Assembly: GCA_017541665.1 (NCBI GenBank)
Contig: JAFXYP010000036.1
Location: forward strand, 8,686 to 72,685
Direction: 5' to 3'
Source of the DNA: Lentisphaeria bacterium
GTDB taxonomy: Bacteria; Verrucomicrobiota; Lentisphaeria; Victivallales; UBA1829
DNA: 64,000 nucleotides
Below are positions 2,534-50,036 of this stretch, piece by piece; position 1 is the stretch's first letter; the number at the start of each line of letters is the position of its first letter. The position numbers were made by a program, and so were the translations under genes. Below the pieces are notes generated by a model. The model was not told the origin of the DNA and searched no databases. It was given only the letters and a program-made list of their open reading frames with translations.

Positions 2534-2544
2534 AGGATTCCGCT

Positions 2545-3042: not shown

Positions 3043-3117
3043 AACGATCATTCTTTTTAACAATATCTGCAACCTTTTTGCATTCAACCATATAAAAACC
3101 AGAGAAGGAGAAGGCTT

Positions 3118-6886: not shown

Positions 6887-6963
6887 GACGCCATCCGTGC
6901 GGCTCTCCACGAACCGCATTTTTTCCGCAGATCAGACATTCAATACTCCACAGGACTGCCCCC

Positions 6964-28120: not shown

Positions 28121-28231
28121 AAAGATTCCTTGCCCGATGAATTGACAGGTCTTCGGAGCGGGGCGAGCACCTCGGACCGGGCAGTCGGAAAACAGATCGG
28201 CAGGATGTAAAACCTGCGGCATCTTGCATAT

Positions 28232-30030: not shown

Positions 30031-30436
30031 GGATTCTGTCAATGCGGATCCCACATTGTGAGGTTGACGGTACGGGCATTCCGCCGGATTCCGAAAAGCA
30101 TCCGCCTTACAAAAAACGGGGCTTTTTTGAATCCGAACGAAATGAAATATTTAATATACCATGGAACACCGGAAAAATCAAACGTAAAACGTTTTTGCAG
30201 GAGAGTGTCTTCACGATATTTCCCGGCATACCGGGGGACTTCCGCAAATGAACGGCATTTCGCATATCCGTCTCCATCCGTCCGCCGATGAAAAAGACAT
30301 GAAAGATTTCGCCGCATTTCAGTTGAAAAAAACAAAAAGCATGATACAGTATTATAGCAAGAATTAAGGCAGAAGGGTCGCCTGCATACACCGGCAGGTG
30401 ACCGCAGACCGTTTTCAAGGAGTTTGTTTCGTCTTT

Positions 30437-31165
30437 ATGGCACAGGATCGTCTCGCATTCATCATCGGCGCATCCCGCGGCATCGGGTATGCATCCGCTT
30501 TGCGTCTGGCGCAGGACGGCTTCGACATCGCGGCGTCCTGCCGCGGCGACACGGCACGTCTCGACGGCCTGCGCACCCGGGTCGAGGCGCTTGGACGCTC
30601 CTTCCTGCCGGTCTCTCTGGATGTCACCGACCGCGCGGGGTCCCTGCGGGTCGTGACGGACCTTTTCGCGGACAATCCGCCCTTCGCGGTCGTCTACAAC
30701 GCCGGCATCTCCCGGGACGACCTTTTCGCATGGATGACCTCGGCGGAATGGGACGACGTGATCCGGACCGGACTCGACGGGTTCTACAACTGCGTCCAGC
30801 CGCTGGTCCAGCCACTCATTTCCGCGAAGAAAGGCCGCATCATCGTGATCAGCAGCGCCTCCGGCCAGGTCGGACGCCCAGGCCAGGTCAACTACTCCGC
30901 CGCGAAGGCCGGGCTTATCGGCGCGGTCAAGGCGCTTGCCGGGGAGCTCGGGCGCAGGAACATCCTCGTGAACGCCGTCGCGCCCGGCATCATCGACACC
31001 GAAATGACGCGCGACCTGGACATGACGAAGCTCCTGCCGCTCATCCCGCTCGGACGGAAAGGCGCCCCGGAGGAAGTCGCGTCCGTCGTTTCCTTCCTCG
31101 CCGGACCGTACTCCGCCTACGTCACCGGACAGGTGATCGGCGTCAACGGAGGCCTGGTATGCTGA
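30437..31165 (+). CDS. 3-oxoacyl-ACP reductase (SDR, FabG/ApeQ-like)
   Basis: 242 aa. GASRGIG cofactor motif, NAG, catalytic S..YSAAK. AAGGAG upstream. Confidence 0.85.
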   Translation: MAQDRLAFIIGASRGIGYASALRLAQDGFDIAASCRGDTARLDGLRTRVEALGRSFLPVSLDVTDRAGSLRVVTDLFADNPPFAVVYNAGISRDDLFAWMTSAEWDDVIRTGLDGFYNCVQPLVQPLISAKKGRIIVISSASGQVGRPGQVNYSAAKAGLIGAVKALAGELGRRNILVNAVAPGIIDTEMTRDLDMTKLLPLIPLGRKGAPEEVASVVSFLAGPYSAYVTGQVIGVNGGLVC

Positions 31166-31196
31166 CCGGCACAAACGCAGACTGGAGGCAATCCGC

Positions 31197-32414
31197 ATGA
31201 ACGGACTGAAACGCGTCGTTATCACCGGCAGCGGCATCTACAGCGCGCTCGGATTCACCCCCGGCGAACTCTTCGACAACCTCGCCGCGGGCAGAAGCGC
31301 CATCGTCAGAGGCGGCGAGGAGGAGGATTTCCTGCCGACCGCCCCTGCCTCGCGCGATCCCGAACGCTTCCGCGTCCTGCCGCGCACGCTCCGCCGCGCC
31401 ATGGCGCCCTCGGCATGCTTCACCGCGATGGCAGGGCTTGCCGCCATGCGGGACTCCGGCCTGTCGCAGGACGAACTGCTCGCGCTGAACGCCGGATGCG
31501 CCGTCGGCTCCACCATGGGGTCCGTCAGCACCCTGCGCGAAGGGTATTCCCTGGTCCTTTCCGGGCAGAGCGACCGCCTCTCCCCGATGCACTTCTTCAA
31601 ATGCGCCTCCCACACCACGGCGTTCAACCTCGCCCGCACCCTCGGGCTCAACGGCGCGATCTACTCGCCGTGTTCCGCCTGCGCCTCCGGGCTCCAGTCC
31701 ATGGGACTCGGCGCGGCGCTCATCTCCGCCGGACAGGAAACGGTCATGTTCTGCGGCGGCGCGGACGAGACCGGCTCCGAAGTCTCCGGTTCGTTCGCCC
31801 TGATGTACGCGCACGCCCCCGCCGAAGGCGACCTGGCGGAGAGCTCCCGGCCCTTCTCGGCGCACCGCAAGGGGCTGGTCTGCGGCGAAGGTGCGGCGGT
31901 CTTCTGTCTGGAGGAATACGACCATGCCGTCCGCCGCGGAGCGAAGATCTACGGCGAAATCGTCGGCTACTCCTCGAACAGCGGCGGGAACGGCCTCAGC
32001 CAGTCCGATGCACCAGCCATCGCCCGCTGCATGGCGGACACCTGCACCTCCGCCGGGATCGCCCCGGCGGACATCGACTACATCAGCGCGCATGCCACGT
32101 CCACGCTCCAGGGCGACGCCGCTGAAGCCGCCGCGATCCGTGAAGTCTTCGGGTCCGGCGTCCCGGTCTCCAGCCTCAAGGGACACCTCGGGCATACGCT
32201 CGGCGCATCCGGCCCGCTGGAAATGGCCGCCGTCTTCGAGATGGCGCGGCACGGCATCCTGATCCCGACCCGCAACCTCGACGAAATCGACCCCGCCTGC
32301 GCCGGGATCGACCATGTGACCGAGCTCCGCGAAAAACGGATCCGCATCTTCTTCAAAAACTCCTTTGCGTTCGGAGGCATCAACGCCTCCCTGATCTGCA
32401 AGCTCAACGTATAA
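31197..32414 (+). CDS. Beta-ketoacyl-ACP synthase (KAS I/II-like, KS 1 of 3)
   Basis: 405 aa. Active-site CSACASG, HATSTLQGD and GHLGHTLGASG (Cys-His-His triad). Confidence 0.9.
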   Translation: MNGLKRVVITGSGIYSALGFTPGELFDNLAAGRSAIVRGGEEEDFLPTAPASRDPERFRVLPRTLRRAMAPSACFTAMAGLAAMRDSGLSQDELLALNAGCAVGSTMGSVSTLREGYSLVLSGQSDRLSPMHFFKCASHTTAFNLARTLGLNGAIYSPCSACASGLQSMGLGAALISAGQETVMFCGGADETGSEVSGSFALMYAHAPAEGDLAESSRPFSAHRKGLVCGEGAAVFCLEEYDHAVRRGAKIYGEIVGYSSNSGGNGLSQSDAPAIARCMADTCTSAGIAPADIDYISAHATSTLQGDAAEAAAIREVFGSGVPVSSLKGHLGHTLGASGPLEMAAVFEMARHGILIPTRNLDEIDPACAGIDHVTELREKRIRIFFKNSFAFGGINASLICKLNV

Positions 32415-32441
32415 CAAACTTTCCCCGGAAGGAACCAAAAT

Positions 32442-32762
32442 ATGAACCTGACACGCGACGAAATCATCGAGGCCGTCAACGGCGCCCTCGTCAATGAAAT
32501 GGAACTCGACCCCGCCGACCTCGCACCCGACAAGACCTTCTTCGAAGACCTCGGGCTCGACAGCCTCGACATGGTCGACCTCATGATCGGACTCCAGCGC
32601 AAATTCGGCATCTCTCTCCGCGAAAACGAGGAGATCAAACAGGTCCGCACCCTCGGAGACGTCTACGATTTCTTCGAGAAGAACCAGGCGATGCTCACCG
32701 CCCAGGCGGAGGCCGCGAAAGCCGCCGCGCAGGCCGCGCAATCCCAGCCGCCGAAGGAATAA
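32442..32762 (+). CDS. Acyl carrier protein with Ala/Gln-rich C-terminal extension
   Basis: 106 aa. Phosphopantetheine site DLGLDSLDMVDL. Tail AQAEAAKAAAQAAQSQPPKE. Confidence 0.85.
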   Translation: MNLTRDEIIEAVNGALVNEMELDPADLAPDKTFFEDLGLDSLDMVDLMIGLQRKFGISLRENEEIKQVRTLGDVYDFFEKNQAMLTAQAEAAKAAAQAAQSQPPKE

Positions 32763-32807
32763 CCCCTTTCCCACCGCCTTTTTCCGCCCGCCCGGCAGGA
32801 GCCGAAG

Positions 32808-33599
32808 ATGTTCTCCCTGATCGTCTACACGCACATGGTCGTTTGCATTCTCCTCTACTGCATTCTGGCCTCGCCGTTTTTTCTGATCGCGGGGATATTC
32901 TGCCTTCTCACCGGCAGGCCGTTCAACGTCGCGGTCCTGAAATTCATCCGCACGTTCGGCCGCTTCATGATCCGCTGCTGGTACAGCGTCTACGTCCCGG
33001 TCCGCCTCGACGATTTCTCCGGCGGCGCGAACCACGGCATCTTCATCGTGAACCACCGGTCGTCCTCCGACCCGTTCCTGGTCTCCATCATCCCCGCCGC
33101 GGGCGCCGCCATGGCCGCGGCAAAGGGCTGGGCACTCCACATGCCGTTCTTCGGCGTCTTCGCGCGGATGGGCGGCTTCATCGACGTGAACAACCTCACC
33201 TACGAGCAAATCGTGGAGCAGACGCGCCGCGCCCTGAGCAATTCCGGCACCATCTACGTCTTCCCGGAGGGCACACGGTCCGGCTCCCGCGTCATGGCAC
33301 CCTTCCACAGCGCGTTCTTCCGCGCCGCGAAGGAGCTCGGCGCGCCGTTGATCCCGGTCGCCATCGCCGGCAACGAACACTGCCCCGAACGTTCCTTCCG
33401 CATGCGCCCGGGCCGCGTCATCATGCGCGTCCTGAAGCCGATCCCGCCGGAACGCATCGCATCCGAGCCGCATTTCCGCATCCAGCGGGAGGTCCACCGC
33501 ATCCTCGAGGAGGAGACCGCCGCGCTGGACCGCGAGATCGACGCGTGGAAACAGGAACGCCGCTATCCGTTTTTTCTTTCTTCCGCAAAATCTACTTGA
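32808..33599 (+). CDS. Lysophospholipid acyltransferase (PlsC/LPLAT family, ApeD-like)
   Basis: 263 aa. N-terminal TM. HX4D motif NHRSSSD, FPEGTRS and IPVAIAG blocks. Confidence 0.85.
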   Translation: MFSLIVYTHMVVCILLYCILASPFFLIAGIFCLLTGRPFNVAVLKFIRTFGRFMIRCWYSVYVPVRLDDFSGGANHGIFIVNHRSSSDPFLVSIIPAAGAAMAAAKGWALHMPFFGVFARMGGFIDVNNLTYEQIVEQTRRALSNSGTIYVFPEGTRSGSRVMAPFHSAFFRAAKELGAPLIPVAIAGNEHCPERSFRMRPGRVIMRVLKPIPPERIASEPHFRIQREVHRILEEETAALDREIDAWKQERRYPFFLSSAKST

Positions 33600-33637
33600 A
33601 CATACCAATACCGTTTTCAGAAGGGAAACCATTCATC

Positions 33638-34114
33638 ATGACCGATCCCAACGCTCCGAAATCCGAAAAACCGCCCATCCCGCACGACGAACTGCGGAAA
33701 AAACTGCCCTTCCCCGCCTCCGGACTGCTCCCGCACGGCGAACCCTTCGCCCTGGTCGACACGATCCTGGAAGAATGGGACCAGGGCGGGATCACGTCCT
33801 CCGTGGTGCATCCCGACCATCCGCTCCTCGCGGCCGACGGGACCGTCGGGGCCGAGACGCTCATCGAATACGCCGCCCAGTCCTGCGCCGCGCTGGACGC
33901 CTTCCAGCGGCAGGACAAGTCTTTCGGCGGGCTTCTGGTGGAGGTCGTCGACTCCAAGTACACCATGCTTCCCCGCGTCGGCGACACCGTGAAAGTCACC
34001 ATCAACGTCCAGTACGACCTCGGCAAATGGCGCGGCATCGCATATCAGACTACCGTCAACGGGAAACCCGCCGCCGAAGGCAGCCTCAAGTTATGTATCA
34101 TCAACGAACAGTAA
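33638..34114 (+). CDS. Hotdog-fold FabZ/FabA-like dehydratase subunit (probably non-catalytic partner, ApeI-like)
   Basis: 158 aa from ATG 33638. LPHGEPFALVD (compare the FabZ LPHRYPFLLVD) but no HFPGxPxxPG catalytic motif. Confidence 0.7.
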   Translation: MTDPNAPKSEKPPIPHDELRKKLPFPASGLLPHGEPFALVDTILEEWDQGGITSSVVHPDHPLLAADGTVGAETLIEYAAQSCAALDAFQRQDKSFGGLLVEVVDSKYTMLPRVGDTVKVTINVQYDLGKWRGIAYQTTVNGKPAAEGSLKLCIINEQ

Positions 34115-34797
34115 GGGCGTCGAAGATCCGCCGCTTTCTGTTTTTGTTGGCGGCTCCGCTCCTTGTTTTCCTGTCTTCCGCCTCCCTCTCCGCGGAGGAG
34201 GCTTCCGTGCAGACGGACGGGAAAACGCAGGGGACCGGGGACGCCGGCATGGCGGAGATCCTGTCGAACATCGCGAACTTCAGGACGCTCCGCACGAAAT
34301 TCGTTCAGACGAAACATCTCAAGTCGTTTAAGAAGCCCATGGTCCTGAACGGCGAACTCTGTCTCGACCGCCCCGGCAAACGCTTCGCATGGCACGTCGA
34401 AAAACCGCTCCGATACTCCTGCGTCATCGCGGACGGCAAGCTCACGCAGTGGGACGAAGACTCCGGCAGGACCGTCTCCGTACCGTTCTCCAAGTACCCC
34501 ATGCTGGAAATGCTTTCGGACGCCATGACGGCGTTCGCGTCCGGCGATCTGAAGGCGCTGGAAAAGGATTTCGAGGCGGCTCCGGGCAAGGACGGCGCGA
34601 TCGTGCTGAAGCCGCGTTCCGAACGCTTCGCCGCCTCGCTTATCACCGAAGTCGAACTCTCGCTCGACGACACGAAAACGAAGATCGTGAAGGTCCGCGC
34701 ATCCGAGAAAAACGGCGACGTGACCGAGCTCGTCTACTCGGATTCCGTTTTCGACTCCGACATCCCGGATACACTCTGGCAGGCGAAACAGAAATGA
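34093..34797 (+). CDS. LolA-like lipoprotein-carrier-fold protein (ApeL-like)
   Basis: 234 aa. Signal peptide IRRFLFLLAAPLLVFLSSASLSA. FRTLRTKFVQTKHLKSFKKPMVLNGEL is typical of LolA-like proteins in lipid-export clusters. Start at ATG 34093 overlaps the preceding gene by 22 nt. Confidence 0.7.
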   Translation: MYHQRTVRASKIRRFLFLLAAPLLVFLSSASLSAEEASVQTDGKTQGTGDAGMAEILSNIANFRTLRTKFVQTKHLKSFKKPMVLNGELCLDRPGKRFAWHVEKPLRYSCVIADGKLTQWDEDSGRTVSVPFSKYPMLEMLSDAMTAFASGDLKALEKDFEAAPGKDGAIVLKPRSERFAASLITEVELSLDDTKTKIVKVRASEKNGDVTELVYSDSVFDSDIPDTLWQAKQK

Positions 34798-37700
34798 AAC
34801 ACCTCCTTCGGCGCGTCATACTGTTCGGTCTGCGGCGCCCGGTCCTTGCGGCGCTCCTGTCTCTTCTCGCGCTTGCGCTCGCCGCCCTCCCGCTCTTCTT
34901 CGCCTCCTTCAGCGCAGACATCACGCGCATGCTCCCCTCCGGCAGCAGGTCCGAACAGGAATGCGCCGTTCTCCTGAACTCCGGCCTGTTCAACCAGTCC
35001 GCCGTCCTGTTCACCGCGGACACGGAAGACCGGCTCGACGCCGCATCCGCGGAGATCGACCGCATCGCCGACGAGATCGCGTCCGTGCCCGGCGTGACGC
35101 GCGTCGACAACCGTTTCCTGCCAAACGACCTCGCCGCCACCCTCGCTTCCTTCCAGGAATGGATCCCGCAGTTCCAGCCGTTTTCCGAACTTGATCCCGC
35201 CGGGATCGTTTCCGCTGTCAAAAGAAAGATCCTGCTCGGCGGATTCGCCTCGCTCGTGCTTGCCGACCCGACCGGATTCGCCGCATCGAAACTTGCCACG
35301 CTCGAACAATTCCGTTCCGCCTCGTCGTTCCGCCTGAAAGACGGCGAAACCGCCATCGTCTCCCCGGATGGCCTGCATCGGCTGCTTCTGCTCGAAACGG
35401 ATGTCTCCGCGGCAGACACGACGGGCGGACGGCGGCTCATGGGCGACCTCGAAAGCATCCTCGCGAACCACCCGATATCCGGCATCCGCGCCGACCTCCT
35501 GCTCGCCCACGCGCACTCCATCGAAAACGAGCGTGTCATCAAGTCGGACGTGAAGCTCGCGTGCATCCTGTCGATCCTCTTCTTCCTGCCCGCGGTCCTG
35601 CTGCTTTTCCGCCGCGACCTGCGCGCGCTGGCGATCCCGGTCTTCCCGGCAGTCGTCTCGCTCGCCGCCGTTGGACTCCTCGCGATCCCCGGCGAACCCG
35701 TCCTGCTTTTCGTGACGGCCACCGGCGGGCTCGTGATCGGGCTGGCGGTCGACTACGGCGTGCATGTGTACATGACCATGCAGACGCCCTGCCCCGTGCG
35801 ACGCCTGATCCGCATCGCGCCCTCCCTGCTGACGGGCGCGGCGACCTCGGCGGCCGTGTTCCTCCTGCTCGCGCTGACGCCGATCCCGGGCGTACGGCAG
35901 TTCGGCGTGTTCATCGGGATCAGCCTGCTCGCCAGCCTGTTCCTCACGCTCCTGCTGTTCCCGTCCGTCCTCATCCGCACGAAGGCGCCCCTGCCGAAGC
36001 CGCGCCCGCTGAAGACGTTCTCCCCGAAGCTCGCATGCGGTATCTGCTTCGGCCTGATGGCGCTCTTCGGCGTCCTCGCGGCCCTGCGGCTCACCGTCCG
36101 CACCGATCTCCGCCAGTTCGACGCCGCGCAGGAGAAGCTCAGCGAAACGGCGGACGCGGTGGAACGCCTCTTTCTCGACGGCCCGGCGCAGGGCGTACTG
36201 GCTGTGCCCGGCAAGGATGCGAACACAGTGCTGATGTCCGCCAGCCTGATCTGCGATACTTTTCTCAAATTGGATCCCGGGCTCGAGGGCAGGATCTTCT
36301 CCACGTCTTTCCTGATCCCGCCGCCGTTCGACGTGACAAAAAGTATTCGGGAGATCAATCTCTCTTCCTGGCGCGAAAATTTCGATTACGACAAATTCGC
36401 GGAATCGCTCCGCGCCGCCGCGGAAAAGGAAGGCTTCGAGCCGGACGCCTTCGATCCCTATCTCGCTTCGCTCAAACGCGGCATCGAATCGCCCGACCTT
36501 GTTTCCTATCCCGAAGTCTTTGCGCCCGTGCTGAACCGCATCCTGCGCCCGGCGGCGGACGGCAACGGCTGGTATGCGGCGATCTTTCTGCCGCAGTCGG
36601 CCCTCGCCAGGCATCGCCCCGGAGTCGGAAACAGGCAGCCTGTCCCGTACGATATCTTAGGAGCCGTCGCCATATCCCGCACGGACATCCCCGCGCAGAT
36701 CGTATCCGACATGAAGTCCGCCGCGACGCTCCCCGTGATCCTCGCCGTGCTCTCGGTCTTCGCGATTGCGTTCCTCTTCTTCCGCAGCGTCCGCGACAGC
36801 CTCTGCGCGATGATCCCGGTGGCGGCGGCCCTGCTGACCGTCTGCGCCGTCTACGCGCTCTGCGGCAAGCCGCTGAACCTCGCCGCCGAGATCTCGCTCG
36901 TGCTGCTCTCCGGCCTCGCCATCGACTACGGCGTCTTCGTGATCGGCAGCGAACGTTCCGCCTCGAATCCGTACGTCTTCCGCGCCATCACCGCCTCCGC
37001 GGTCACGACCGCCGCCGGCGGCCTCACCATCGCGTTCGCGGGGCATCCGCTCCTGCACGAAGCCGGGTTCGCGCTGATCCCCGGCGTGCTCGCCGCCTGG
37101 GGTGTCGCCGTGCTGCTTCTGCCGTCCATCCGCCGCGGATTCGCGGCGCAAACCAAACCCGTTTCGCCCGGGCTCAAGACGCTTCTTCTCGCGGTCACCC
37201 CCGTATTCCTCCTGTTCGCCTCGTCCGCGTGCCGTTCCCTGCCCTACGATTACGAACCGGTCCCGCCCCTGACGGAAACGGATTGGCCGCTCTACCGCGA
37301 CGCGGTCCAGCCGCCGGCCGCCCCGATGCAGCCGTTCGCGTTCCAGGGCAAAGTCACCATCGAATACAAGTTCTTCTCCCAGGCCACGCTCTGCGCCGTC
37401 TCCTACGACGAATCCGGCGAGCTGCGCGTCGCGGCGTTCTCCCCGTCCGGCGGCAAGCTCTTCGAACTGGCGGGCACGGCGGACGCCCTGGCGGATTTCT
37501 GGTTCGTGCCGTTCGACATCCTGGACGGCCACGAAAAAGAGGCGGCGGGATTCATCCTGGAGGATTTCTTCAACATCTTCAGCCATCTGGAACCGTGGCG
37601 CGGCGCAAAAGCCGGGGCGACGGAAACAATCGACGACGGCAAAAAGATCATCCGCCGGGAAACCTCCGGGGACGACGGCGGAGAGCTTGTCAGCGAGTTT

Positions 37701-37892
37701 TGGGGACCGAAATTGCCCGTAATGAACAAATATTACTTTAAAAACGAAAGTATCGACTGGCAATCCTGGTATTTTCGGTATATCGTAAAAGATACGGTTA
37801 TTTTTCCCGAAATCATCGTATACGACAATAATAAACACGGATACCGCCTTATCCTGTCGGTATCGGATTACTTCGAGGACAGCGAATCATGA
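34794..37892 (+). CDS. MMPL/RND-type predicted exporter fused to a C-terminal DUF3261-like lipoprotein domain (ApeM+ApeN-like fusion)
   Basis: 1,032 aa. ATGA overlap with the LolA-like gene. Two blocks of ~6 TM helices with large loops (MMPL pattern). After aa ~790 there is an internal signal-like segment LKTLLLAVTPVFLLFASSAC (Cys813, nt 37230-37232) followed by a ~220-aa soluble domain. Confidence 0.8.
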   Translation: MKHLLRRVILFGLRRPVLAALLSLLALALAALPLFFASFSADITRMLPSGSRSEQECAVLLNSGLFNQSAVLFTADTEDRLDAASAEIDRIADEIASVPGVTRVDNRFLPNDLAATLASFQEWIPQFQPFSELDPAGIVSAVKRKILLGGFASLVLADPTGFAASKLATLEQFRSASSFRLKDGETAIVSPDGLHRLLLLETDVSAADTTGGRRLMGDLESILANHPISGIRADLLLAHAHSIENERVIKSDVKLACILSILFFLPAVLLLFRRDLRALAIPVFPAVVSLAAVGLLAIPGEPVLLFVTATGGLVIGLAVDYGVHVYMTMQTPCPVRRLIRIAPSLLTGAATSAAVFLLLALTPIPGVRQFGVFIGISLLASLFLTLLLFPSVLIRTKAPLPKPRPLKTFSPKLACGICFGLMALFGVLAALRLTVRTDLRQFDAAQEKLSETADAVERLFLDGPAQGVLAVPGKDANTVLMSASLICDTFLKLDPGLEGRIFSTSFLIPPPFDVTKSIREINLSSWRENFDYDKFAESLRAAAEKEGFEPDAFDPYLASLKRGIESPDLVSYPEVFAPVLNRILRPAADGNGWYAAIFLPQSALARHRPGVGNRQPVPYDILGAVAISRTDIPAQIVSDMKSAATLPVILAVLSVFAIAFLFFRSVRDSLCAMIPVAAALLTVCAVYALCGKPLNLAAEISLVLLSGLAIDYGVFVIGSERSASNPYVFRAITASAVTTAAGGLTIAFAGHPLLHEAGFALIPGVLAAWGVAVLLLPSIRRGFAAQTKPVSPGLKTLLLAVTPVFLLFASSACRSLPYDYEPVPPLTETDWPLYRDAVQPPAAPMQPFAFQGKVTIEYKFFSQATLCAVSYDESGELRVAAFSPSGGKLFELAGTADALADFWFVPFDILDGHEKEAAGFILEDFFNIFSHLEPWRGAKAGATETIDDGKKIIRRETSGDDGGELVSEFWGPKLPVMNKYYFKNESIDWQSWYFRYIVKDTVIFPEIIVYDNNKHGYRLILSVSDYFEDSES

Positions 37893-38272
37893 CCATCTGG
37901 GATGAAATCGACTCCATCTACAATCAGGCCGGAGAGAACGGAGAAGGCCCCTGCACGTTCTCCGTCCCCGTCACGTTTTCCGGCTACCGCGGACACTTCC
38001 CCGGCAATCCGATCCTGCCCGGGATCGTCCAGCTCTCTTTCATCCGCCGCCTGGCGGAACGCCGCCTCGGGCGTCCGCTCCGTCTCGCAGGCGTGCGCCG
38101 CATCAAGTACCTGCGCCTGATCACGCCGGACATGCCGGTGACGCTTTCGCTGGAGCTCGAGCCGGTCGAGGGCGAAGGCACCTGGGCCGCGAACGCATCT
38201 CTCCTGAACGCGGAAGGCGGACGCGTCTCCGCGGCAAAACTGTTCTTCGCGCCCAAAGAAAGTGCATCATGA
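37889..38272 (+). CDS. FabZ-like 3-hydroxyacyl-ACP dehydratase (catalytic, ApeP-like)
   Basis: 127 aa. YRGHFPGNPILPGIV catalytic-His motif. ATGA overlap with the upstream gene. Confidence 0.8.
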   Translation: MTIWDEIDSIYNQAGENGEGPCTFSVPVTFSGYRGHFPGNPILPGIVQLSFIRRLAERRLGRPLRLAGVRRIKYLRLITPDMPVTLSLELEPVEGEGTWAANASLLNAEGGRVSAAKLFFAPKESAS

Positions 38273-38751
38273 GACACCCCGAGTTCAAGCAATATTTTGA
38301 ACGCAAACCCGGTGACCCGCCGCCGCTCGAAGTCAGAGTCACGCGCCGTCTCCAGTTCAGTGAGTCCGACCCCCTGAAGATCGCCTGGCACGGCAACTAT
38401 GCCAGGTTCTTCGAGGCCGCCTACACCGAGCTTTCGCACAGCTTCGGGTTCGACAACGACTGTCTTGAGCGGGAGCACGTCTCCGCGCTCTTCTACCACG
38501 ACGAATACGACTACCGCATCCCGCTCCCCTGCGACGCCCTCTTCCACACCTCGGCCGCGCTCATCTGGACCGATGCTCCGCGCATCAACATCGAGTACGC
38601 CGTGCGCATGGAGGACGGCCGCGTCGCCGCCGCCGGATGCACCACGCAGGTCTTCATCGACGCCCGCGACTTCACGCCGCTGTGGCACATCCCGCTCTTC
38701 TGGGAGGAATTCCTGAAGCGCTGGAAGGAGGGAGCATACCACCATGGATGA
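38269..38751 (+). CDS. 4HBT/YbgC-type hotdog acyl thioesterase (ApeK-like)
   Basis: 160 aa. VTRRLQFSESDPLKIAWHGNYARFFEAAYTEL matches the 4HBT thioesterase N-terminal pattern (catalytic Asp). ATGA overlap upstream. Confidence 0.75.
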   Translation: MRHPEFKQYFERKPGDPPPLEVRVTRRLQFSESDPLKIAWHGNYARFFEAAYTELSHSFGFDNDCLEREHVSALFYHDEYDYRIPLPCDALFHTSAALIWTDAPRINIEYAVRMEDGRVAAAGCTTQVFIDARDFTPLWHIPLFWEEFLKRWKEGAYHHG

Positions 38752-39853
38752 CCGCACTCCCGTCATCGTCGACTGCGACCTGTACACCGCGTTCGGACCC
38801 GGCGTGGAAGCCTGCTGGAACGGGCTTCTGCAGAACCATGCCGCGTTTTCCGACTGCTCCAGGTTCCACAACGAGAAATTCTCCACGGCCCTCGCGGCCA
38901 TGGCGCCCGGCGCCGAGGTCAACGGCACGGAGGAGATCCCCGGATTCTTCCTGGACTACCTCTCCGCGACCGCGAAGAAGATGCCGCGCGACTCCGAGCT
39001 TTTCCTCGCCAGCACCGTCGGCGAGATCGAATACATCGACAATCCCGAACGCCGCTGCACCTGCGACATGCTGCTGGAACGCGCGCTGAAGGTCTGCGAC
39101 AAGGAGCACGGGCGCATCGTTTCCGCCGCCTGCGCGTCCTCGAACTCCGCCTTCGTTTCGCTCGCCCGCCACATCCGCAGCGGCCGCCTCGACTCCGCGG
39201 TCGTGATCGGCACCGACTACGTCAGCGAATTCATCTTCTCCGGCTTCGCCACGCTGCGCGCCCTGGCCCGCACGATCGCACGTCCGTACGACCGCAACCG
39301 CGACGGGCTCCTGCTCGGCGACGCCGCGTCCATCGTGAACATCTGCTCCGCGAAGAAGGCCGCCGAACTCGGCCTGAAGCCGCGCGCGGTGCTGACGTCC
39401 GGCGGAATGAGCTGCGACGCGGTCCACATCACCGCGCCCATGCCGCACGGCGAGGCGCTTTCCGAAGCCATCGGACACGCACTGGATGAAGCCGGGCTCA
39501 CCCCGGACGACATCGGCGCCGTGATCGGGCACGGGACCGGAACGCGCTACAACGACGACATGGAGATCCAGGCCATCCACCGGAACTTCGGCGACCGCTC
39601 CGTGCCGATGCTCTCCGTGAAGGGCGCTTGCGGGCACACGCTCGCGGGCGCGGGCCTCGTGGAGGCCGTCGTCGGGGTCCGTATGCTGGAGACCGGGCTG
39701 ATCCCGCCCCAGACTTCCCTGCTCACTCCCGAGCCGGAGGCCGCCCGCTACGTCTCCACCGAAATCCGCAAACTCGAAAAGCCGCGCGTTCTGTGCATGA
39801 ACTCCGGGTTCGGAGGCCTGAACGCCGTCATCATCCTGGAGGCCGTATCATGA
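38744..39853 (+). CDS. Beta-ketoacyl synthase (KS 2 of 3)
   Basis: 369 aa. SAACASSNSA active-site Cys, CDAVHITAP and GHGTGTRYND/GACGHTLAGAG His motifs. Confidence 0.85.
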   Translation: MDDRTPVIVDCDLYTAFGPGVEACWNGLLQNHAAFSDCSRFHNEKFSTALAAMAPGAEVNGTEEIPGFFLDYLSATAKKMPRDSELFLASTVGEIEYIDNPERRCTCDMLLERALKVCDKEHGRIVSAACASSNSAFVSLARHIRSGRLDSAVVIGTDYVSEFIFSGFATLRALARTIARPYDRNRDGLLLGDAASIVNICSAKKAAELGLKPRAVLTSGGMSCDAVHITAPMPHGEALSEAIGHALDEAGLTPDDIGAVIGHGTGTRYNDDMEIQAIHRNFGDRSVPMLSVKGACGHTLAGAGLVEAVVGVRMLETGLIPPQTSLLTPEPEAARYVSTEIRKLEKPRVLCMNSGFGGLNAVIILEAVS

Positions 39854-40482
39854 ACCGCGCGTATCCCTGGCACATCATCGGCGGCGTCACGGTCGAAGGG
39901 CTTTCGTTCCGCACCTGGCGCCGCGGCATCGTCTGCACGGCGGAGGACACGCAGGACGCCAAGGCAAAAGTCTCGTCCGTTCAGGACGATTTCCCGCACG
40001 TCTACGGCCTCGACAACTTCCGGCGCGGCGATGCGAAAGTCCGCACCTACATCCTGGCCGCCGTCCTCGCGCATCGCGACGCGGAGGTCGATGCCGTCCG
40101 CGGGACCGCCATCATCGATTTCGGCCGGCAGGGCTGCCACGAACAGAACCTGGACTATTTCAACGACTACCGCGAGCACGGACGCCATCTCGGGCGCGGT
40201 CACCTTTTCGTCGGGACGCTCCCGACCACGCCCCCCTGCGAGGCGGCGATCTCCCTCAAGCTCACCGGGCCGTGCTTCTACATGGATGCGTTCGACCGCT
40301 GGCCCGTCCTCTGGGACGAGGTCACCAACTTCTTCGAGATGCCGAGCATCCGGCGCGTCATGGTCTGCCGCTACGGATCGGGCAAACTGACCGTTCTGCT
40401 GGCGGAATCCGGCGGCCCGATGGAGATCCCGGACGAGTCCGATCCCGAAACCCTCGCCCGGCGCATCTTCCGCGCGGAATGA
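39850..40482 (+). CDS. Short KS-N-terminal-like protein without active-site Cys (chain-length-factor-like partner 1, divergent)
   Basis: 210 aa. ATGA-coupled to KS 2. LFVGTLPTTPPCEAAISLKLTGPCFYMD occupies the position of the KS active-site loop but lacks the TACSS motif. Assignment is by context and weak similarity. Confidence 0.5.
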   Translation: MNRAYPWHIIGGVTVEGLSFRTWRRGIVCTAEDTQDAKAKVSSVQDDFPHVYGLDNFRRGDAKVRTYILAAVLAHRDAEVDAVRGTAIIDFGRQGCHEQNLDYFNDYREHGRHLGRGHLFVGTLPTTPPCEAAISLKLTGPCFYMDAFDRWPVLWDEVTNFFEMPSIRRVMVCRYGSGKLTVLLAESGGPMEIPDESDPETLARRIFRAE

Positions 40483-40500
40483 CACCGGGGGGATGATCTC

Positions 40501-41667
40501 ATGCGCTGCTGCTGCGTGATCCCCGTCTTCAACCATGCGTCCACGGCCCCGTCCGTGATCGAGCGGACGCGCGCCGTCATGCCCGACGTCCTCGTGATCG
40601 ACGACGGTTCGGAGGACGTCGACCTGGCGGAGCTCTACGCGGGCACCGGCGTCGAGGTCATACGGCATCCGCACAACATGGGAAAAGGCGCGGCGCTCCT
40701 CACCGCCATCCGCACGCTCGCCCCGCGCGGCTACGACTACATGATCACGCTCGACGCCGACGACCAGCACGACCCGGAGGACATCCCGAGGTTCCTGCCG
40801 CTGCTGGAACGCAACGACTGGACGCTCGTCGCCGGAGTCCGCGATTTCTCCGTGCCGAACGTCCCGGGCAGGAGCAAATTCGGCCGCGCCTTCTCCAACT
40901 TCTGGTTCCTCGTCGAAACCGGCAAAAAGATCTCCGACTCCCAGAGCGGATTCCGCGCGTACCCGCTCCAATACGTCTCGCGGATCCGGTGCTCCTCGCT
41001 CCATTACACGTTCGAGACCGAGCTGCTCACGCGCTGCATGTGGGCGGGGCTCGAGCTTGCCGAGGTCCCGATCTCCACGCATTACGACCCGCCCGGGGAA
41101 CGCGTCTCGCATTTCCATCCCGTCCGCGACAACTGGCGCATGACCTGGCTCCATACGCGCCTCGTGTTCCGCCGCCTCGTCCCGTTCGGCGTCAGGAAAC
41201 TCCGGGAGACGCCCCGCGAATACCCGTGCCTGTGGAAGCCGAAGGAGCTCTGGGCCTGGCTCGTGAAGGAAAATACATCCTCGCTCGGGCTCGCGTTCTC
41301 CGCGTTCGTCGGCGCGCTCCTCGCCGTATACCCCACCTACGGGTTCTGCACGATTCTGATCCTCTACGTCGCCACGCGCCTCCACCTCAACAAAGCCATG
41401 GCGGTCATGGCGCAGAATCCATTCATGCCGCCGGTCTGCCCGGTCCTCTGCATCGAACTCGGCTATTTCCTGCGGCACGGCAGATTTCTGCTCCCGGAGG
41501 ACCTGAATTTCCACAGTACGGTCCGCGAGATCCATCTGCGCTGGTTCGAATGGCTTCTCGGCAGCATCGTCCTCGCCCCGGTGTTCGCCGCGACATTCGC
41601 CGTCATCGTCTACCTCGCCGCCGAACTCTGCCGCGCGATCATCCGCAGAAAGGGCGCACGTATATGA
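40501..41667 (+). CDS. Family-2 glycosyltransferase fused to a DUF2062-like membrane domain (ApeJ-like)
   Basis: 388 aa. CCVIPVFNH..VIDDGSED..TLDADDQHDPEDI (GT-A DxD). C-terminal hydrophobic part ..AFVGALLAVYPTYGFCTILILYVATRLHLNKAMAVMAQNPFMPP. Confidence 0.8.
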   Translation: MRCCCVIPVFNHASTAPSVIERTRAVMPDVLVIDDGSEDVDLAELYAGTGVEVIRHPHNMGKGAALLTAIRTLAPRGYDYMITLDADDQHDPEDIPRFLPLLERNDWTLVAGVRDFSVPNVPGRSKFGRAFSNFWFLVETGKKISDSQSGFRAYPLQYVSRIRCSSLHYTFETELLTRCMWAGLELAEVPISTHYDPPGERVSHFHPVRDNWRMTWLHTRLVFRRLVPFGVRKLRETPREYPCLWKPKELWAWLVKENTSSLGLAFSAFVGALLAVYPTYGFCTILILYVATRLHLNKAMAVMAQNPFMPPVCPVLCIELGYFLRHGRFLLPEDLNFHSTVREIHLRWFEWLLGSIVLAPVFAATFAVIVYLAAELCRAIIRRKGARI

Positions 41668-42578
41668 ACGGCGCATCCGCGGCACGGCAGCCCGCCGCAA
41701 ACCTGAGCGACACGCGCAGGAACAAGCTCGGATCCGCGATCCTTCGCGGGATCCTGTCCCTCTTCGGCCCTGCCGCCGCGTGCTTCCTCGTCAAGTTCAT
41801 CGCGCTCGTCTATGCGCTCACGGACCGGCAGGCCGAACAGCGCGCCCTGCCCTACCTGAAGCACCGTTTCCCGGAGGCAAAGGGTCTCCGCATGAAACGC
41901 CATGTCTGGCGTCTCTTCACGGCCCAGGGGGAGGCGCTCATCATGGCGCTGGCGCTGGCCGACGGACAGGCGAAGGTGTGCGAACGCAACCCCGAAGTCT
42001 TCACCCCGCTCCGGGATGCTCCCGGCGGGCTCGTCTTCCTCTGCTCGCATTTCGGCGCGTGGCAGGCCGCCATGCACTGCGTGAACGCCGGGAACCGCCG
42101 GGTCGCGTTCGTCGCGAAACCTGACCGCAACGCCGACGTCGACAAAAGCCGCGCGTTCAACGGCGGGGAAACCGCGCCGATGCACATCATCGACACCGCG
42201 GGCGCTTTCGGCGGACTGCTGGAGGCGTTCGATGTGCTCGAATCGGGCGGCGCGGTCGGCCTGATGGGCGACCGCTGCCTGGAACACGACGCCGTGCCGG
42301 TGCGTTTCTTCGGCGGGACCGCGCATTTCCCCGCGGCGGCCTTTTTCCTGGCGGCCAGGGCGCATGCCCCGGTCGTGCCGTTCTTCCTGACGCGCGGCGA
42401 TTCCTACCGCGAACTCCGTCTCGAATTCGCCCCCGTCGTGCGTCCGGCGCGCCCGGCCCGCGGCGGGATCAAATTCCAGGCGGACGTCCAGCTTTATGCC
42501 GATGCGCTCGAACGCATGGCAATGGAGCATCCTTACGACTGTTTCCTCTTCGAAAACGTATGGGAGGCCCGCACATGA
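41664..42578 (+). CDS. LpxL/HtrB-family (lipid A late) acyltransferase-like protein
   Basis: 304 aa. ATGA overlap upstream. N-terminal TM. LCSHFGAWQAA (HX4-type motif region), GLMGDR and FFGGTAHFPAAAFFLA blocks are typical of the lauroyl/myristoyl acyltransferase family. Confidence 0.7.
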   Translation: MNGASAARQPAANLSDTRRNKLGSAILRGILSLFGPAAACFLVKFIALVYALTDRQAEQRALPYLKHRFPEAKGLRMKRHVWRLFTAQGEALIMALALADGQAKVCERNPEVFTPLRDAPGGLVFLCSHFGAWQAAMHCVNAGNRRVAFVAKPDRNADVDKSRAFNGGETAPMHIIDTAGAFGGLLEAFDVLESGGAVGLMGDRCLEHDAVPVRFFGGTAHFPAAAFFLAARAHAPVVPFFLTRGDSYRELRLEFAPVVRPARPARGGIKFQADVQLYADALERMAMEHPYDCFLFENVWEART

Positions 42579-43789
42579 TCTACAGAATGCCTTTCGATCC
42601 CGTCATAACGGGGTTCGCGCATCTTTCCTGCGCCGGATCGACCGACGCCGAGGCGCTGGCGCTGTTCCGGGGCGAACGCGCACCCGAAACGCCGCGAAGC
42701 GCATGCTCCGTGATCGACTCGGCCATCCGGGACCAGGTATTCTACCTTGATTCCTTTCAGTCCGGGCCGGAAGGTCTGCGCACGCTCGCCATGATCCGCG
42801 CAACCGTTTCACGGGCATTGGACGCCGCAGGGCTCACGCCCGGCATGCTGCGCGGGTCCGCGACCGGCTGTGTGGTCGGCACGACCATCGCCCACCAGTT
42901 CACGGAGACCCCCTACTACGCGCGTCTGCGCGAGGACCCGGACACGGAGGAAAACGGACCGGCGCAACGCTTCCTGGACTCCAATCCGGCGGAGACGGTC
43001 GCCCGCGAATACGGCCTGTCCGGCCCCGTCTACACGGTCTCCAATGCGTGCTCCTCCGGCGCGGACGCCATGTCCATCGCCGCGCTCTGCCTCCTCTCCG
43101 GCCAGTGCGAACGCATGATCGTGATCGGAGCGGACGAGCTTCACCGCACCCCAGTCGCAGGATTCCACGTCCTCGGCGTGACCTCGCCGTTCCCGTGCCG
43201 TCCGTTCGACTCCGCGCGCGCCGGGCTGAATCTCGGGGAAGGCGCGGGCGTCCTGATCCTGGAAACGCCCGAATGCGCCGGAAAACGCGGAAAGAAGTCG
43301 GAGTTTGCATTATGCGGGTTCGGTATGTCCTGCGACGCATCCCACATCACGGCCCCGGACGCGACCGGAGGCGGCATGAAACGCGCGTTCCGGGACGCCC
43401 TGCTCCGCGCCGGACTCTCGCTCGGCGACGTCGCGTTCATCAACGCCCACGGCACCGGCACCGTCCTGAACGACCAATGCGAGACCGCGGCGTTCGCCGG
43501 ACTGGCGGAGGAAACCGGAGCCGCCGCCCCGCCGCCGTTCCTCTCCACGAAACGTTTCACCGGGCACACGCTCGGCGCCGCCGGCACGCTCGAATTCATT
43601 TTCACCATGCTCATGCTGCGGGACGGCATGGTCCCGGCGAGTCCGGGCTGCAAGACGCCGGACCCCGCGCTCGCATGCGCCCCTCTGACCTCGCCACTGC
43701 ATCTCCCCTTCGGCACGCGCTTCGCGGCATCGACCTCTCTGGCGTTCGGCGGCACGGATGCCGTCCTCATCGCGGAAAGGATAGACTGA
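42575..43789 (+). CDS. Beta-ketoacyl synthase (KS 3 of 3)
   Basis: 404 aa. ATGA overlap and GGGAGG SD. VSNACSSGADA active-site Cys, CDASHITAP, NAHGTGTVLND, FTGHTLGAAG. Confidence 0.85.
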   Translation: MIYRMPFDPVITGFAHLSCAGSTDAEALALFRGERAPETPRSACSVIDSAIRDQVFYLDSFQSGPEGLRTLAMIRATVSRALDAAGLTPGMLRGSATGCVVGTTIAHQFTETPYYARLREDPDTEENGPAQRFLDSNPAETVAREYGLSGPVYTVSNACSSGADAMSIAALCLLSGQCERMIVIGADELHRTPVAGFHVLGVTSPFPCRPFDSARAGLNLGEGAGVLILETPECAGKRGKKSEFALCGFGMSCDASHITAPDATGGGMKRAFRDALLRAGLSLGDVAFINAHGTGTVLNDQCETAAFAGLAEETGAAAPPPFLSTKRFTGHTLGAAGTLEFIFTMLMLRDGMVPASPGCKTPDPALACAPLTSPLHLPFGTRFAASTSLAFGGTDAVLIAERID

Positions 43790-43792
43790 ACC

Positions 43793-44410
43793 ATGTCGCT
43801 CCGTCTGCTCGCTTCTTCGTTCACCGCCCCCGGTGCCGACCTGCGCTGGGATGATGAATTCCTCCGCGCCGAACGCTCCCGCCTCGGGCTCGGGCGGCGC
43901 ACCGACCGCATGACTGCCGCCGTCCTCTCCGCGTTCGACCGGCTCGAAGGACGACCCGGCGACGCCCCTCTGGTCTTCGGCAGCATGCTCGGCGTGCAGA
44001 GCCGCATCACGGCGCTCCAGAACGACCTGATCGACTTCCCCGAGGACCAGATCGGCCCCGTGTCGTTCTCCTGCTCCGTGCACAATGCCGTCCCGGGCGC
44101 CGCGGCGATCCGTTTCGGCATGAAGGTCCCCGTCTTCTCCCTCGCCGGATTCGACCGGCTCCACGAACGTGCCTTCCGGCTCGCCGACGCGATCCTCTCC
44201 GCCGGGGACGCCGAACATGCGATCGTGATCCTGACGGAGGAACGTTCTCCCTTCGCCGAACGCGCGATGAAGCTGTCCGGCCTCGAACCGATGGAGTTCG
44301 CCGCGGTCTTCCTGCTGGAGCACGCCGGCGCGGACGATCCATGCGCATGGCCCGGCCCGCCGCCGGACCTCAGTTATTTCCGGTGGATCGGGAGCCTCTT
44401 ATCAAACTGA
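43793..44410 (+). CDS. Beta-ketoacyl synthase chain-length-factor-like protein (Ketoacyl-synt_2 type, ApeC-like)
   Basis: 205 aa. GPVSFSCSVHNAVPGAAAIRFG contains the SVHNA signature of short CLF-like KS N-terminal domains. No catalytic Cys-His-His set. Confidence 0.7.
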   Translation: MSLRLLASSFTAPGADLRWDDEFLRAERSRLGLGRRTDRMTAAVLSAFDRLEGRPGDAPLVFGSMLGVQSRITALQNDLIDFPEDQIGPVSFSCSVHNAVPGAAAIRFGMKVPVFSLAGFDRLHERAFRLADAILSAGDAEHAIVILTEERSPFAERAMKLSGLEPMEFAAVFLLEHAGADDPCAWPGPPPDLSYFRWIGSLLSN

Positions 44411-45107: not shown

Positions 45108-45297
45108 GTTCGGTTTCCTGTGTTTTCTGCCCGAATAATATCGCACATATCCGCATAAAATCAAGCCTGTTTCCGCTTTTTTGTTTGAAATCCTCCTTCC
45201 GCCGTGGTATTATATTATCGGTTCAGGAATGCCCCTGCCCGACGGCACGGGGCCCCGCAGCCGCACTTCGCCCCGTCCACCCCGTTCGATTTTCAGC

Positions 45298-47548: not shown

Positions 47549-47603
47549 TCATTTTCCATTTTATCCAATATAACATTTTCAAACACAGAAGAGGTCACCA
47601 AAC

Positions 47604-50015: not shown

Positions 50016-50036
50016 CGGAAAGGAGCGGTTTCCGGC

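Follow-up and report, generated by a model that had tools for sequence, protein, structure and literature searches.

A fifteen-gene aryl-polyene-like operon without linked starter genes in rumen Victivallales

Clusters of the aryl polyene (APE) type are often called the bacterial biosynthetic gene cluster family with the widest distribution, and their products are usually explained as antioxidant pigments. Here we analyse an APE-like operon from an uncultured cow-rumen Victivallales (Lentisphaerota) bacterium, a host whose phylum lies, as a sequence-only reading of the same DNA had remarked, outside the Proteobacteria and Bacteroidota. The operon is found on a 64-kb stretch of contig JAFXYP010000036.1 (hereafter the window), which is the sole part of the genome examined and whose coordinates are used for all positions given below. 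It comprises 15 tightly packed genes on the + strand, at 30437-44410; with the ape cluster proteins of E. coli CFT073 as the APE reference, 13 of the 15 products are homologous to E. coli Ape proteins, to which is added a chain-length factor (CLF) of the family PF13723. The window encodes neither a starter-unit ligase nor a second acyl carrier protein (ACP), and the same reduced gene set recurs in related rumen genomes.

Gene content and layout of the operon

The sequence-only reading had described 15 same-strand genes linked by six ATGA start/stop overlaps, and the checks of the open reading frames (ORFs), of third-codon-position G+C (GC3) and of the overlaps agree with it. All 15 ORFs carry a high-GC3 coding signature in a sequence of 63% G+C, and the ATGA overlaps lie at 34794, 37889, 38269, 39850, 41664 and 42575. 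The thioesterase gene and the gene of the second ketosynthase (KS_2) overlap by 8 nt at 38744, and the remaining intergenic gaps are at most 45 nt, the uncertain start of the LolA-like gene excepted.

The first gene (30437..31165, +) encodes a 242-aa 3-ketoacyl-ACP reductase (KR) of the ApeQ type, which matches Pfam adh_short_C2 at 2e-47 and E. coli ApeQ with 193 bits in phmmer, and which has the motifs GASRGIG and YSAAK (YxxxK). Its NCBIfam matches to FabG, FabG2 and FlxB (FlxB_rubin_SDR) all fall under the equivalog cut-offs, with 269 bits against a cut-off of 273 in the case of FabG. The only ACP of the operon (32442..32762, +; 106 aa; Pfam PP-binding, with a DSL motif) is of the ApeF type, as it scores 52.8 bits against E. 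coli ApeF vs 22.3 bits against ApeE.

Three genes encode ketosynthases (KSs), and their catalytic Cys/His/Lys/His residues are intact in each case. KS_R (31197..32414, +; 405 aa) has both Pfam KS domains and is ApeR-type: it scores 233 bits against E. coli ApeR (phmmer), its top match in the PDB is A. baumannii ApeR (7f27) with 259 bits vs ~200 bits for FabF, and it groups with ApeR at 96% neighbour-joining (NJ) bootstrap in a tree rooted on E. coli FabF, although its identities are low, at 37% to ApeR and 35% to FabF. The ApeO-type KS_O (42575..43789, +; 404 aa), with the Pfam KS domains, scores 158 bits against E. coli ApeO and groups with it at 78% NJ bootstrap. KS_2 (38744..39853, +; 369 aa) has the N- and C-terminal Pfam KS domains, the N-terminal third being diverged, and matches E. 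coli ApeO in protein comparison; in the tree it is sister to the ApeO-type KSs, the joint clade of KS_2, KS_O and ApeO having 100% bootstrap, and a counterpart of it is absent from the E. coli ape cluster. KS_2 and KS_O have full-length AmcF-like NCBIfam matches below the cut-off. Their top structure match is PDB 9s5h_B, a 2026 entry named '3-oxoacyl-(ACP) synthase' (164 bits for KS_O and 146 for KS_2), which outranks FabF and A. baumannii ApeO for both; a paper for 9s5h was not found in our literature search.

In a phylogeny run against ApeO, ApeR and FabF, KS_R thus goes with ApeR and KS_O with ApeO, and not with housekeeping FabF; the NCBIfam FabF and FabB matches of the KSs are all far under their equivalog cut-offs. 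FabD, FabH, enoyl-reductase (ER) and ligase domains were not found in any of the 15 operon products with Pfam or NCBIfam. Judged by its domain content and by the KS tree, the operon is not a housekeeping type II fab operon, since it lacks FabD, FabH and an ER and since its KSs group with ApeR and ApeO.

The last gene of the operon (43793..44410, +) encodes the ApeC-type CLF of 205 aa. It matches Pfam Ketoacyl-synt_2 (PF13723) above the cut-off at 2.7e-12, the family that it shares with E. coli ApeC, and it matches A. baumannii ApeC (PDB 7f28_A) weakly (E=0.02). The gene behind KS_2 (39850..40482, +) encodes a 210-aa protein with no match in Pfam, NCBIfam or the PDB sequences. Its AF2 model, computed from a 15-sequence alignment, reaches a pLDDT of 83.7 and a pTM of 0.84, and Foldseek matches it to KS and CLF chains of the thiolase fold, best to the ishigamide CLF (6kxe_B) and further to FabF, MxnB and ApeC (6qsp_B), with E values of 1e-4 to 1e-3 and a TM score of ~0.44. 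It also aligns with a PF13723-type CLF alignment in hhalign (E=6e-4), its motif GHLFVGTLPTTPxCEAAISLxLxGP...AFD parallels a FabF segment, and by eye an Asp takes the position of the KS active-site Cys, likewise as in the CLF of the cluster (...AGFD). The domain is fused behind a KS in L028 and L046, two of the related loci described below, and library sequences 553-604 aa long show the same fusion. With 366 representatives at E<=1e-3 out of 1.84 billion, this is a small family. The predicted fold and these fusions suggest above all that the 210-aa protein is the CLF-type partner of KS_2, the second such protein of the operon and one without a family model. Its identification as ApeG was considered and rejected, as it has no transmembrane (TM) segments vs about five in ApeG. 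Of the two short CLF-like KS fragments that had been proposed from the sequence, the one at 43793-44410 is therefore borne out by PF13723, whereas the one at 39850-40482 is CLF-like by predicted fold and fusions only.

The dehydratase is divided over two hotdog proteins. The ApeI-like subunit (37889..38272, +; 127 aa) has weak matches to Pfam FabA and to an ApeI-like model and scores 31.5 bits against E. coli ApeI; it has the catalytic His in GHFPGNPILPG and a Ser at the position of the FabZ Glu. The ApeP-like subunit (33638..34114, +; 158 aa) has no match to any Pfam model itself, and its matches to FabZ and E. coli ApeP are weak. It retains the FabZ Glu (IEYAAQ) but not the FabZ His position, as does E. 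coli ApeP. The FabZ His and Glu are thus split over two hotdogs exactly as in E. coli ApeI and ApeP, in agreement with the catalytic and non-catalytic pair recognised earlier. PF22817 is recorded for the ApeP orthologues of the related loci L004 and L005, which are 70-74% identical to the window protein. The ApeP-like gene evolves fastest in the operon, with a ratio of nonsynonymous to synonymous substitution rates (dN/dS) of 0.34-0.39. The neighbour of the ApeI-like gene (38269..38751, +) encodes a 160-aa thioesterase of the 4HBT/YbgC type (Pfam 4HBT_2 and 4HBT), which is ApeK-like with 32 bits to E. coli ApeK.

Three enzymes are candidates for building the lipid anchor. The PlsC/LPLAT-type acyltransferase (32808..33599, +; 263 aa, with an N-terminal TM segment; PF01553 at 1.5e-18) has the motifs HRSSSD (HX4D) and FPEGTR and is ApeD-like: it matches E. 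coli ApeD, if only weakly (19.8 bits), and both belong to PF01553. A family 2 glycosyltransferase (GT2) with a DUF2062 membrane domain (40501..41667, +; Glycos_transf_2 at 4e-19, DUF2062 at 1e-8), with a DAD motif, corresponds to the N-terminal part of E. coli ApeJ at 120 bits. The gene that follows (41664..42578, +) encodes an LpxL/Lip_A_acyltrans-type acyltransferase (PF03279 at 3e-16), the equivalent of the C-terminal part of ApeJ, with 25.8 bits to the C-terminal half of the E. coli protein. Across the family (about 40 loci) the LpxL-like proteins share an invariant SH(F/V)GxWQ motif.

Two further products would serve export. For the LolA-like, ApeL-like periplasmic carrier (34093..34797, +) the start is uncertain (34093, 34144 or 34207); the ATG at 34093 is the most likely one, with a signal-peptide-like N-terminus and an overlap with the stop of the ApeP-like gene, and the orthologues are 190-227 aa long. 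In Pfam it matches LolA (5e-10) and in NCBIfam LolA2_flexi (6e-21), the latter below the cut-off. The ApeM-like MMPL/RND-type exporter (34794..37892, +; 1032 aa) lies exactly at the cut-off of Pfam MMPL, has HAE3 and MMPL matches in NCBIfam, and scores 52.6 bits against E. coli ApeM. Its beta-rich C-terminal tail of 237 residues (residues ~796-1032, nt 37179-37889, +) follows an extra TM segment ending in '...FASSAC' and is also present in ~1000-aa Lentisphaerota homologues of the pump. The tail had no match to DUF3261 or any other Pfam model even at E<=10; it is weakly collinear with a single E. coli ApeN sequence in hhalign (P=0.0095), and in its AF2 model, of low confidence (pLDDT 54), the six best Foldseek matches are all LolB. 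A LolB/ApeN-like tail is plausible on this model. Of the exporter fused to a DUF3261-like domain in the sequence-only reading, the MMPL assignment stands, as does the LolA-like carrier, while the DUF3261-like label is plausible, with no Pfam match and with LolB as the best structural matches of a low-confidence model. For the KR, the three Cys-His-His KSs, the single ACP, the 4HBT thioesterase, the PlsC- and LpxL-type acyltransferases and the GT2-DUF2062 protein, Pfam or NCBIfam matches and residue alignment upheld the assignments that it had made.

Conservation, nearest relatives and surroundings

Relatives were collected by a scan with one genome per GTDB species, which gave 80 loci (those named here carry the prefix L), and the cluster genes were mapped with phmmer. 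For the MMPL protein, 50 homologues fall at 71-100% identity, every one of them from a metagenome or a metagenome-assembled genome (MAG), and the next lie at ~26%; the group at 78-88% identity is made up of MAGs from the rumen that bear the names Victivallales or Lentisphaeria (L006-L017). MAG assemblies with the operon belong to the WGS sets CACYHQ01, JBGUKN01, CACYZF01, CADCMR01, JAGCTY01, JAFSZN01, JBGUKB01, ONQZ01, CACZEK01 and JAEEQN01. Of the 14 loci recovered for this clade, 12 are fully covered, and all 12 have the identical 15-gene order. Within +/-10 kb these 12 relatives have no ligase and no radical-SAM genes, and each has one ACP; the translational coupling is kept in the 12 genomes with full coverage. 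When compared with L006, L010 and L005, at synonymous divergences (dS) of 0.3-0.8, each of the 15 genes has a dN/dS within 0.05-0.39, which means that the operon is maintained by selection. On our best reading it is a functional operon, inherited vertically within the rumen Victivallales clade.

The next-closest clusters come from other Lentisphaerota (including Oligosphaera ethanolica DSM 24202), Omnitrophota, Verrucomicrobiota, Desulfuromonadales, Geopsychrobacteraceae and Desulfobacterales. These are strikingly syntenic with the cluster of the window, but larger, with the order KR-KS(-KS)-ACP-PlsC-AMP ligase-radical SAM/SPASM::ApeP-LolA-MMPL-ApeI-thioesterase-KS_2-partner-B12-radical SAM x2-3-GT2DUF-LpxL-ACP2-KS_O-CLF. 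In L001 and L003 the ligase and the radical SAM/SPASM gene lie between PlsC and LolA. The ligase of the relatives resembles FlxY (397 bits, cut-off 520) and PaaK rather than ApeH; the B12-dependent radical SAM (B12-rSAM) protein of L001 passes TIGR04072, 'lipid biosynthesis B12-binding/radical SAM protein', with 449 bits against a cut-off of 360; and their second ACP (ACP2) is ApeE-type, with 58.6 bits. At many loci, among them L001:4085-5524 and L003:7194-8633, the ApeP-like domain forms the C-terminus of a radical SAM/SPASM protein of ~479 aa. A ladderane-type FASII-like cluster of this kind, with syntenic 'phenylacetyl-CoA ligase' and SAM-radical genes, has been described from Kuenenia, Desulfotalea, Geobacter and Pelobacter (Rattray et al. 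2009, PMC2649909), and antiSMASH 'ladderane' calls of unknown function have been reported in non-anammox phyla (PMC9902471). The match to the APE parts list that had been proposed from the sequence thus holds as homology to Ape proteins, while the nearest kin are ladderane-type and flexirubin-like clusters and not those of the E. coli type.

The accessory genes of these relatives are distributed as a mosaic: among the 50 loci that cover the interval from the ACP to the pump, 25 have the ligase and 25 do not, and ligase-less variants also occur in Desulfobacterota. The rumen clade alone among these 50 loci lacks the ligase, the radical SAM (rSAM) domain, the B12-rSAM genes and ACP2 jointly. Whether the ligase and the ApeE-type ACP are, as a general rule, strictly lost together was also considered; the rule fails outside the rumen clade, where L052, L058, L074 and L084 are without a ligase but have ACP2; conversely, L021 has a ligase and no ACP2. 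In the MMPL tree the rumen clade is tight and long-branched and is nested inside ligase-bearing Lentisphaerota, so the minimal state is derived by loss. On these sequence comparisons the cluster of the window is a secondarily reduced core of the ladderane-type/APE family. Cluster organisation is plastic in Lentisphaerota: in L020, L022 and L040 (and L019) the 10 kb on either side of the pump gene contain the upstream half alone, from KR to ApeI, and the half with thioesterase, KS_2, GT2, LpxL, KS_O and CLF is elsewhere or absent.

Downstream of the CLF lies an MFS_1 transporter gene (Pfam MFS_1; 45298..46524, +; start set by homology), which was probably once the 16th member of the operon. In L004 (GTGA) and L005 (ATGA) its start codon and the stop codon of the CLF gene overlap, and its dN/dS is 0.19-0.20. 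The protein was unmatched in NCBIfam at E<=0.001, hence it falls into none of the named transporter families of that library (e.g. the lysophospholipid flippase LplT). Between CLF and MFS gene a GT2 glycosyltransferase gene is inserted on the - strand (44370-45164, likely start 45110), whose 3' end overlaps the 3' end of the CLF gene by 41 nt. This insertion is present in the window and in L006, L008, L012, L016 and L017, and absent from L004, L005, L007, L014 and L015, whose MFS genes begin in overlap with the end of the CLF gene. The displaced MFS gene is preceded by a promoter-like site at 45185-45213 (a consensus match), and downstream of it come NrdG, NrdD and a thioredoxin-reductase-like gene.

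On the other side, an EptA/CptA-like phosphoethanolamine transferase gene (28387-30054, -) diverges from the operon; its product has a Sulfatase domain and scores 198 bits against CptA, below the cut-off. The gene occupies the same position in L004, L007 and L015 and may be functionally linked to envelope-lipid modification. The divergent intergenic region between this gene (-) and the KR gene contains a sigma-70-like promoter candidate at 30323..30350 (+), TTGAAA-16-TACAGT with a TG and 9/12 matches, which is a consensus match only; terminator and promoter scans of the window gave only weak consensus matches, and window scans found no Rfam families and no tRNAs. Next to the transferase gene is an ORF of 1871 aa (22607-28222, -) with a good coding signature and sub-threshold Pfam matches only. 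HypF/HypD/HypE (194-5369) and NrdG/NrdD with a fused glutaredoxin domain (46823-50951) fit a strictly anaerobic host. A 2204-aa protein (6187-12801, +) with DUF4011, an AAA_11/AAA_12 helicase, an MTES_1575 endonuclease-like domain and DUF3320 is a helicase-nuclease of a type often met in defence contexts, and other ORFs of the window encode a ClC channel and a GH30 enzyme.

Missing starter genes and a possible pathway

In characterised APE systems, 4-hydroxybenzoate is activated by ApeH through adenylation and attached to ApeE; the chain is then lengthened by ApeO:ApeC and ApeR, with reduction by ApeQ, dehydration by ApeI:ApeP and no enoyl reduction (PMC8253772, PMC8358021). We searched for the entry point of this route with an HMM that combines 32 family ligases with E. 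coli ApeH. No AMP-binding ORF was found in any frame of the 64-kb window at E<=10, and the same HMM found none in the +/-10 kb loci of L004-L017. Pfam scans of the flanking and larger gene-like ORFs of the window found no ligase or ammonia-lyase domain, some smaller ORFs lying outside the scan. E. coli ApeB and ApeE-type ACP had no match in the window beyond the single ApeF-type ACP, and counterparts of ApeA, ApeB, ApeG and ApeH were not found in the cluster comparison with E. coli CFT073. Across 85 loci, E. coli ApeH, ApeN, ApeG, ApeB and ApeC had no phmmer match; as ApeH is unmatched there, the ligase of the family is not an ApeH orthologue but FlxY/PaaK-like. The proposal that the adenylating enzyme, a methyltransferase and a second ACP are missing is thus supported by the HMM search of the window, by phmmer and by the related loci, which within +/-10 kb are without a ligase and have one ACP; that of a missing ammonia-lyase is supported by the Pfam scans of the flanking and larger window ORFs.

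How might such an operon make a lipid? Without a dedicated adenylated starter, a KS, most likely the FabB/F-like KS_R, would be primed by a housekeeping acyl-ACP or by acetyl from malonyl decarboxylation. Malonyl extension would then proceed on the single ApeF-type ACP by KS_R and by the putative heterodimers KS_O:CLF and KS_2 with its 210-aa partner, and each round would involve only the KR and the ApeI:ApeP dehydratase. Because the operon has no enoyl reductase, the chain would be a conjugated polyenoyl or 3-hydroxy-polyenoyl one. A precedent for such a chain may be seen in Xenorhabdus, whose aryl-polyene lipids include a conjugated fatty acyl, 26:5-3-OH; it serves equally for the product suggested in the sequence-only reading, a non-aryl polyene or unusual acyl chain on a glycolipid or lysophospholipid anchor. 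The Xenorhabdus lipids carry two polyene chains on a glycerol-phosphate-GalNAc backbone, an aryl polyene and the conjugated fatty acyl 26:5(4t-12t)-3-OH (bioRxiv 10.1101/2020.12.19.423268), and from the published structure we infer that the latter consists of a saturated fatty-acyl primer and ER-less elongations. That preprint proposes ApeF as the carrier on which the conjugated fatty acyl is made and ApeD as the enzyme that hands it to lyso-PG; GalNAc would then be added by ApeJ, which would also transfer the aryl polyene from ApeE (bioRxiv 10.1101/2020.12.19.423268). By analogy, the PlsC/ApeD-like acyltransferase of the operon would place the chain on a lysophospholipid, the GT2-DUF2062 protein would add a sugar to the head group, the LpxL-like acyltransferase a further acyl group, and the 4HBT thioesterase would aid release or editing. 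Transport of the lipid to the outer membrane would fall to the MMPL pump, with its putative LolB-like tail, and to the LolA-like carrier.

Since the ApeF-type ACP and the ApeD-like enzyme were kept while the ligase and the ApeE-type ACP were lost, fatty-acyl or acetyl priming is the most economical mechanism. From the observed gene content, homologies and conservation we infer the starter, the polyene nature, the anchor and the destination of the product, and we consider it an even bet that this is a fatty-acyl- or acetyl-primed polyene or 3-hydroxy acyl glycolipid exported to the outer membrane. Several points weigh against this. The aryl-stacking residues of A. baumannii ApeR (F118, Y135, F202) correspond to Y, F and F in KS_R, and these positions are aromatic throughout 50 KS_R orthologues, with no difference between clades that have the ligase and clades that lack it. 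Genes outside the 64-kb window might supply a ligase, a second ACP or an enoyl reductase in trans, and unlinked components are realistic because the cluster halves are >10 kb apart in L020, L022 and L040. The LpxL-like protein has, family-wide, a Gln vs the catalytic Glu of E. coli LpxL (HFLTLE) and of the C-terminal part of ApeJ (HLGDVE). Finally, the role of ApeF and ApeD in the conjugated fatty acyl branch is itself a preprint proposal (bioRxiv 10.1101/2020.12.19.423268).

An ordinary aryl-polyene or flexirubin-like pigment lipid would be formed if a special starter, an aromatic or other carboxylic acid, were provided in trans by an unlinked ligase, as a CoA thioester or on another ACP; the difference would then lie in gene linkage alone. 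The physically split clusters of L020, L022 and L040 are consistent with this, as are the aryl-stacking positions of ApeR that are still aromatic in KS_R and the FlxY/PaaK-type aryl-acid ligase of the sister clusters, and the examined genome portion amounts to 64 kb. We nevertheless think such a supply unlikely: the ligase, the rSAM domain, the B12-rSAM genes and the ApeE-type ACP vanish together while the 15 genes stay coupled in 12 genomes, the window has no ligase within 30 kb upstream or 20 kb downstream, and the ACP type that is missing is the normal recipient of an adenylated starter. If, on the other hand, housekeeping FabI/K/V reduced the chain or synthesis stopped at the 3-hydroxyacyl stage, the operon would be a specialised fatty acid synthase that places non-polyene, long or hydroxy acids on a glycosylated phospholipid or a lipid-A-like anchor. 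KS_R is 35% identical to FabF, nearly as much as to ApeR (37%), the KR lies just under the FabG equivalog cut-off (269 vs 273 bits), both PlsC- and LpxL-type acyltransferases are encoded, a divergent EptA/CptA-like phosphoethanolamine transferase gene adjoins the operon, and a polyene product has never been tied to the ladderane-type relatives. The split ApeI:ApeP pair and the ApeO:ApeC-type KS:CLF are, however, hallmarks of polyene-forming highly reducing type II systems, an ER gene is found in neither the operon nor the clusters of the relatives, and the characterised homologous machinery yields polyenes, including an alkyl-tailed one, all of which makes non-polyene chains a rather improbable outcome.

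That the operon might be the decaying remnant of a ladderane-type/APE cluster whose product has been lost is suggested by the genes of its nearest relatives that are missing here. Its 15 intact ORFs, the coupling kept in 12 genomes, the dN/dS of 0.05-0.39 and the intact catalytic motifs make this extremely improbable, and we reject a remnant or pseudogene on the dN/dS and the intact motifs. Returning to the fatty-acyl- or acetyl-primed lipid, a more specific form of this proposal is that a clade of strictly anaerobic rumen Victivallales makes an 'aryl-less' APE lipid, an outer-membrane glycophospholipid with a fatty-acyl-primed conjugated polyene that would be nature's counterpart to the conjugated fatty acyl half of Xenorhabdus APE lipids on its own, which we put forward tentatively and somewhat expect to need revision. 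If true, the 15 genes would constitute the minimal autonomous core of the APE/flexirubin/'ladderane-type' superfamily, to which optional modules would be added for an aryl starter, for radical-SAM chemistry and for a second ACP. What the second ACP, the second ketosynthase and the genes for anchor and export do in APE-type clusters is poorly settled, and a naturally minimal, selected version offers a clean system in which to ask whether the core makes a non-aryl conjugated fatty acyl lipid, as well as a route to the functions of the KS:CLF pairs and of ApeD/ApeJ-type enzymes. In an oxygen-free habitat, the role of an antioxidant pigment is less obvious for such a lipid.

Comparison with characterised systems

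The APE clusters of E. coli CFT073, Xenorhabdus doucetiae and A. baumannii share with the window the homologues of ApeQ, ApeR, ApeF, ApeD, ApeP and ApeL and those of ApeM, ApeI, ApeK, ApeO, ApeJ and ApeC, and an enoyl reductase is absent in both. The split His/Glu dehydratase, the logic of a KS:CLF heterodimer and the Lol-like and RND members of the export set are likewise shared. In contrast, ApeH, the ApeE-type ACP, ApeB, ApeG and ApeA are absent from the window, so that the ApeH-type starter ligase and the ApeE/ApeF pair of ACPs, which define APE clusters, are not found there. ApeJ is one protein in APE clusters, whereas the window has separate GT2-DUF2062 and LpxL-like genes, and ApeN is represented in the window at best by the tail fused to the pump; a homologue of ApeG was not found. 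The window differs further in its additional KS:CLF-like pair (KS_2 and the 210-aa protein), in its gene order and in its Lentisphaerota host.

By sequence and gene order, which is common across the 80 loci, the ladderane-type clusters are closest, but their TIGR04072 B12-rSAM proteins, rSAM/SPASM::ApeP fusion, FlxY/PaaK-like ligase and second ACP are absent from the window and its clade. With the flexirubin clusters of Bacteroidota the operon shares the matches of its KR to FlxB_rubin_SDR and of its LolA-like carrier to LolA2_flexi, all below the equivalog cut-offs; in contrast to these clusters, the window has neither the FlxY ligase nor the tyrosine ammonia-lyase, and the operon has no KAS III-type (DarB-like) domain. 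Ishigamide Iga11/Iga12, from the highly reducing, polyene-forming type II PKS of actinobacteria, and cispentacin AmcF/AmcG likewise combine a KS:CLF with a KR and a dehydratase without an ER and build non-aromatic chains, but the identity to them is low, they yield soluble metabolites, and genes for a lipid anchor or for Lol/MMPL export are absent from them.

Genome mining would probably flag the cluster as 'arylpolyene', and aryl-polyene calls in Victivallaceae have already been published (PMC8863827); a description of minimal ligase-less APE clusters was not found in our literature search. The genome-mining labels 'arylpolyene' and 'ladderane' may cover chemically different products. Taken together, the operon belongs to a known superfamily, but its minimal ligase-less form is newly described, and we regard it as an interesting, if unproven, variant of a known system.

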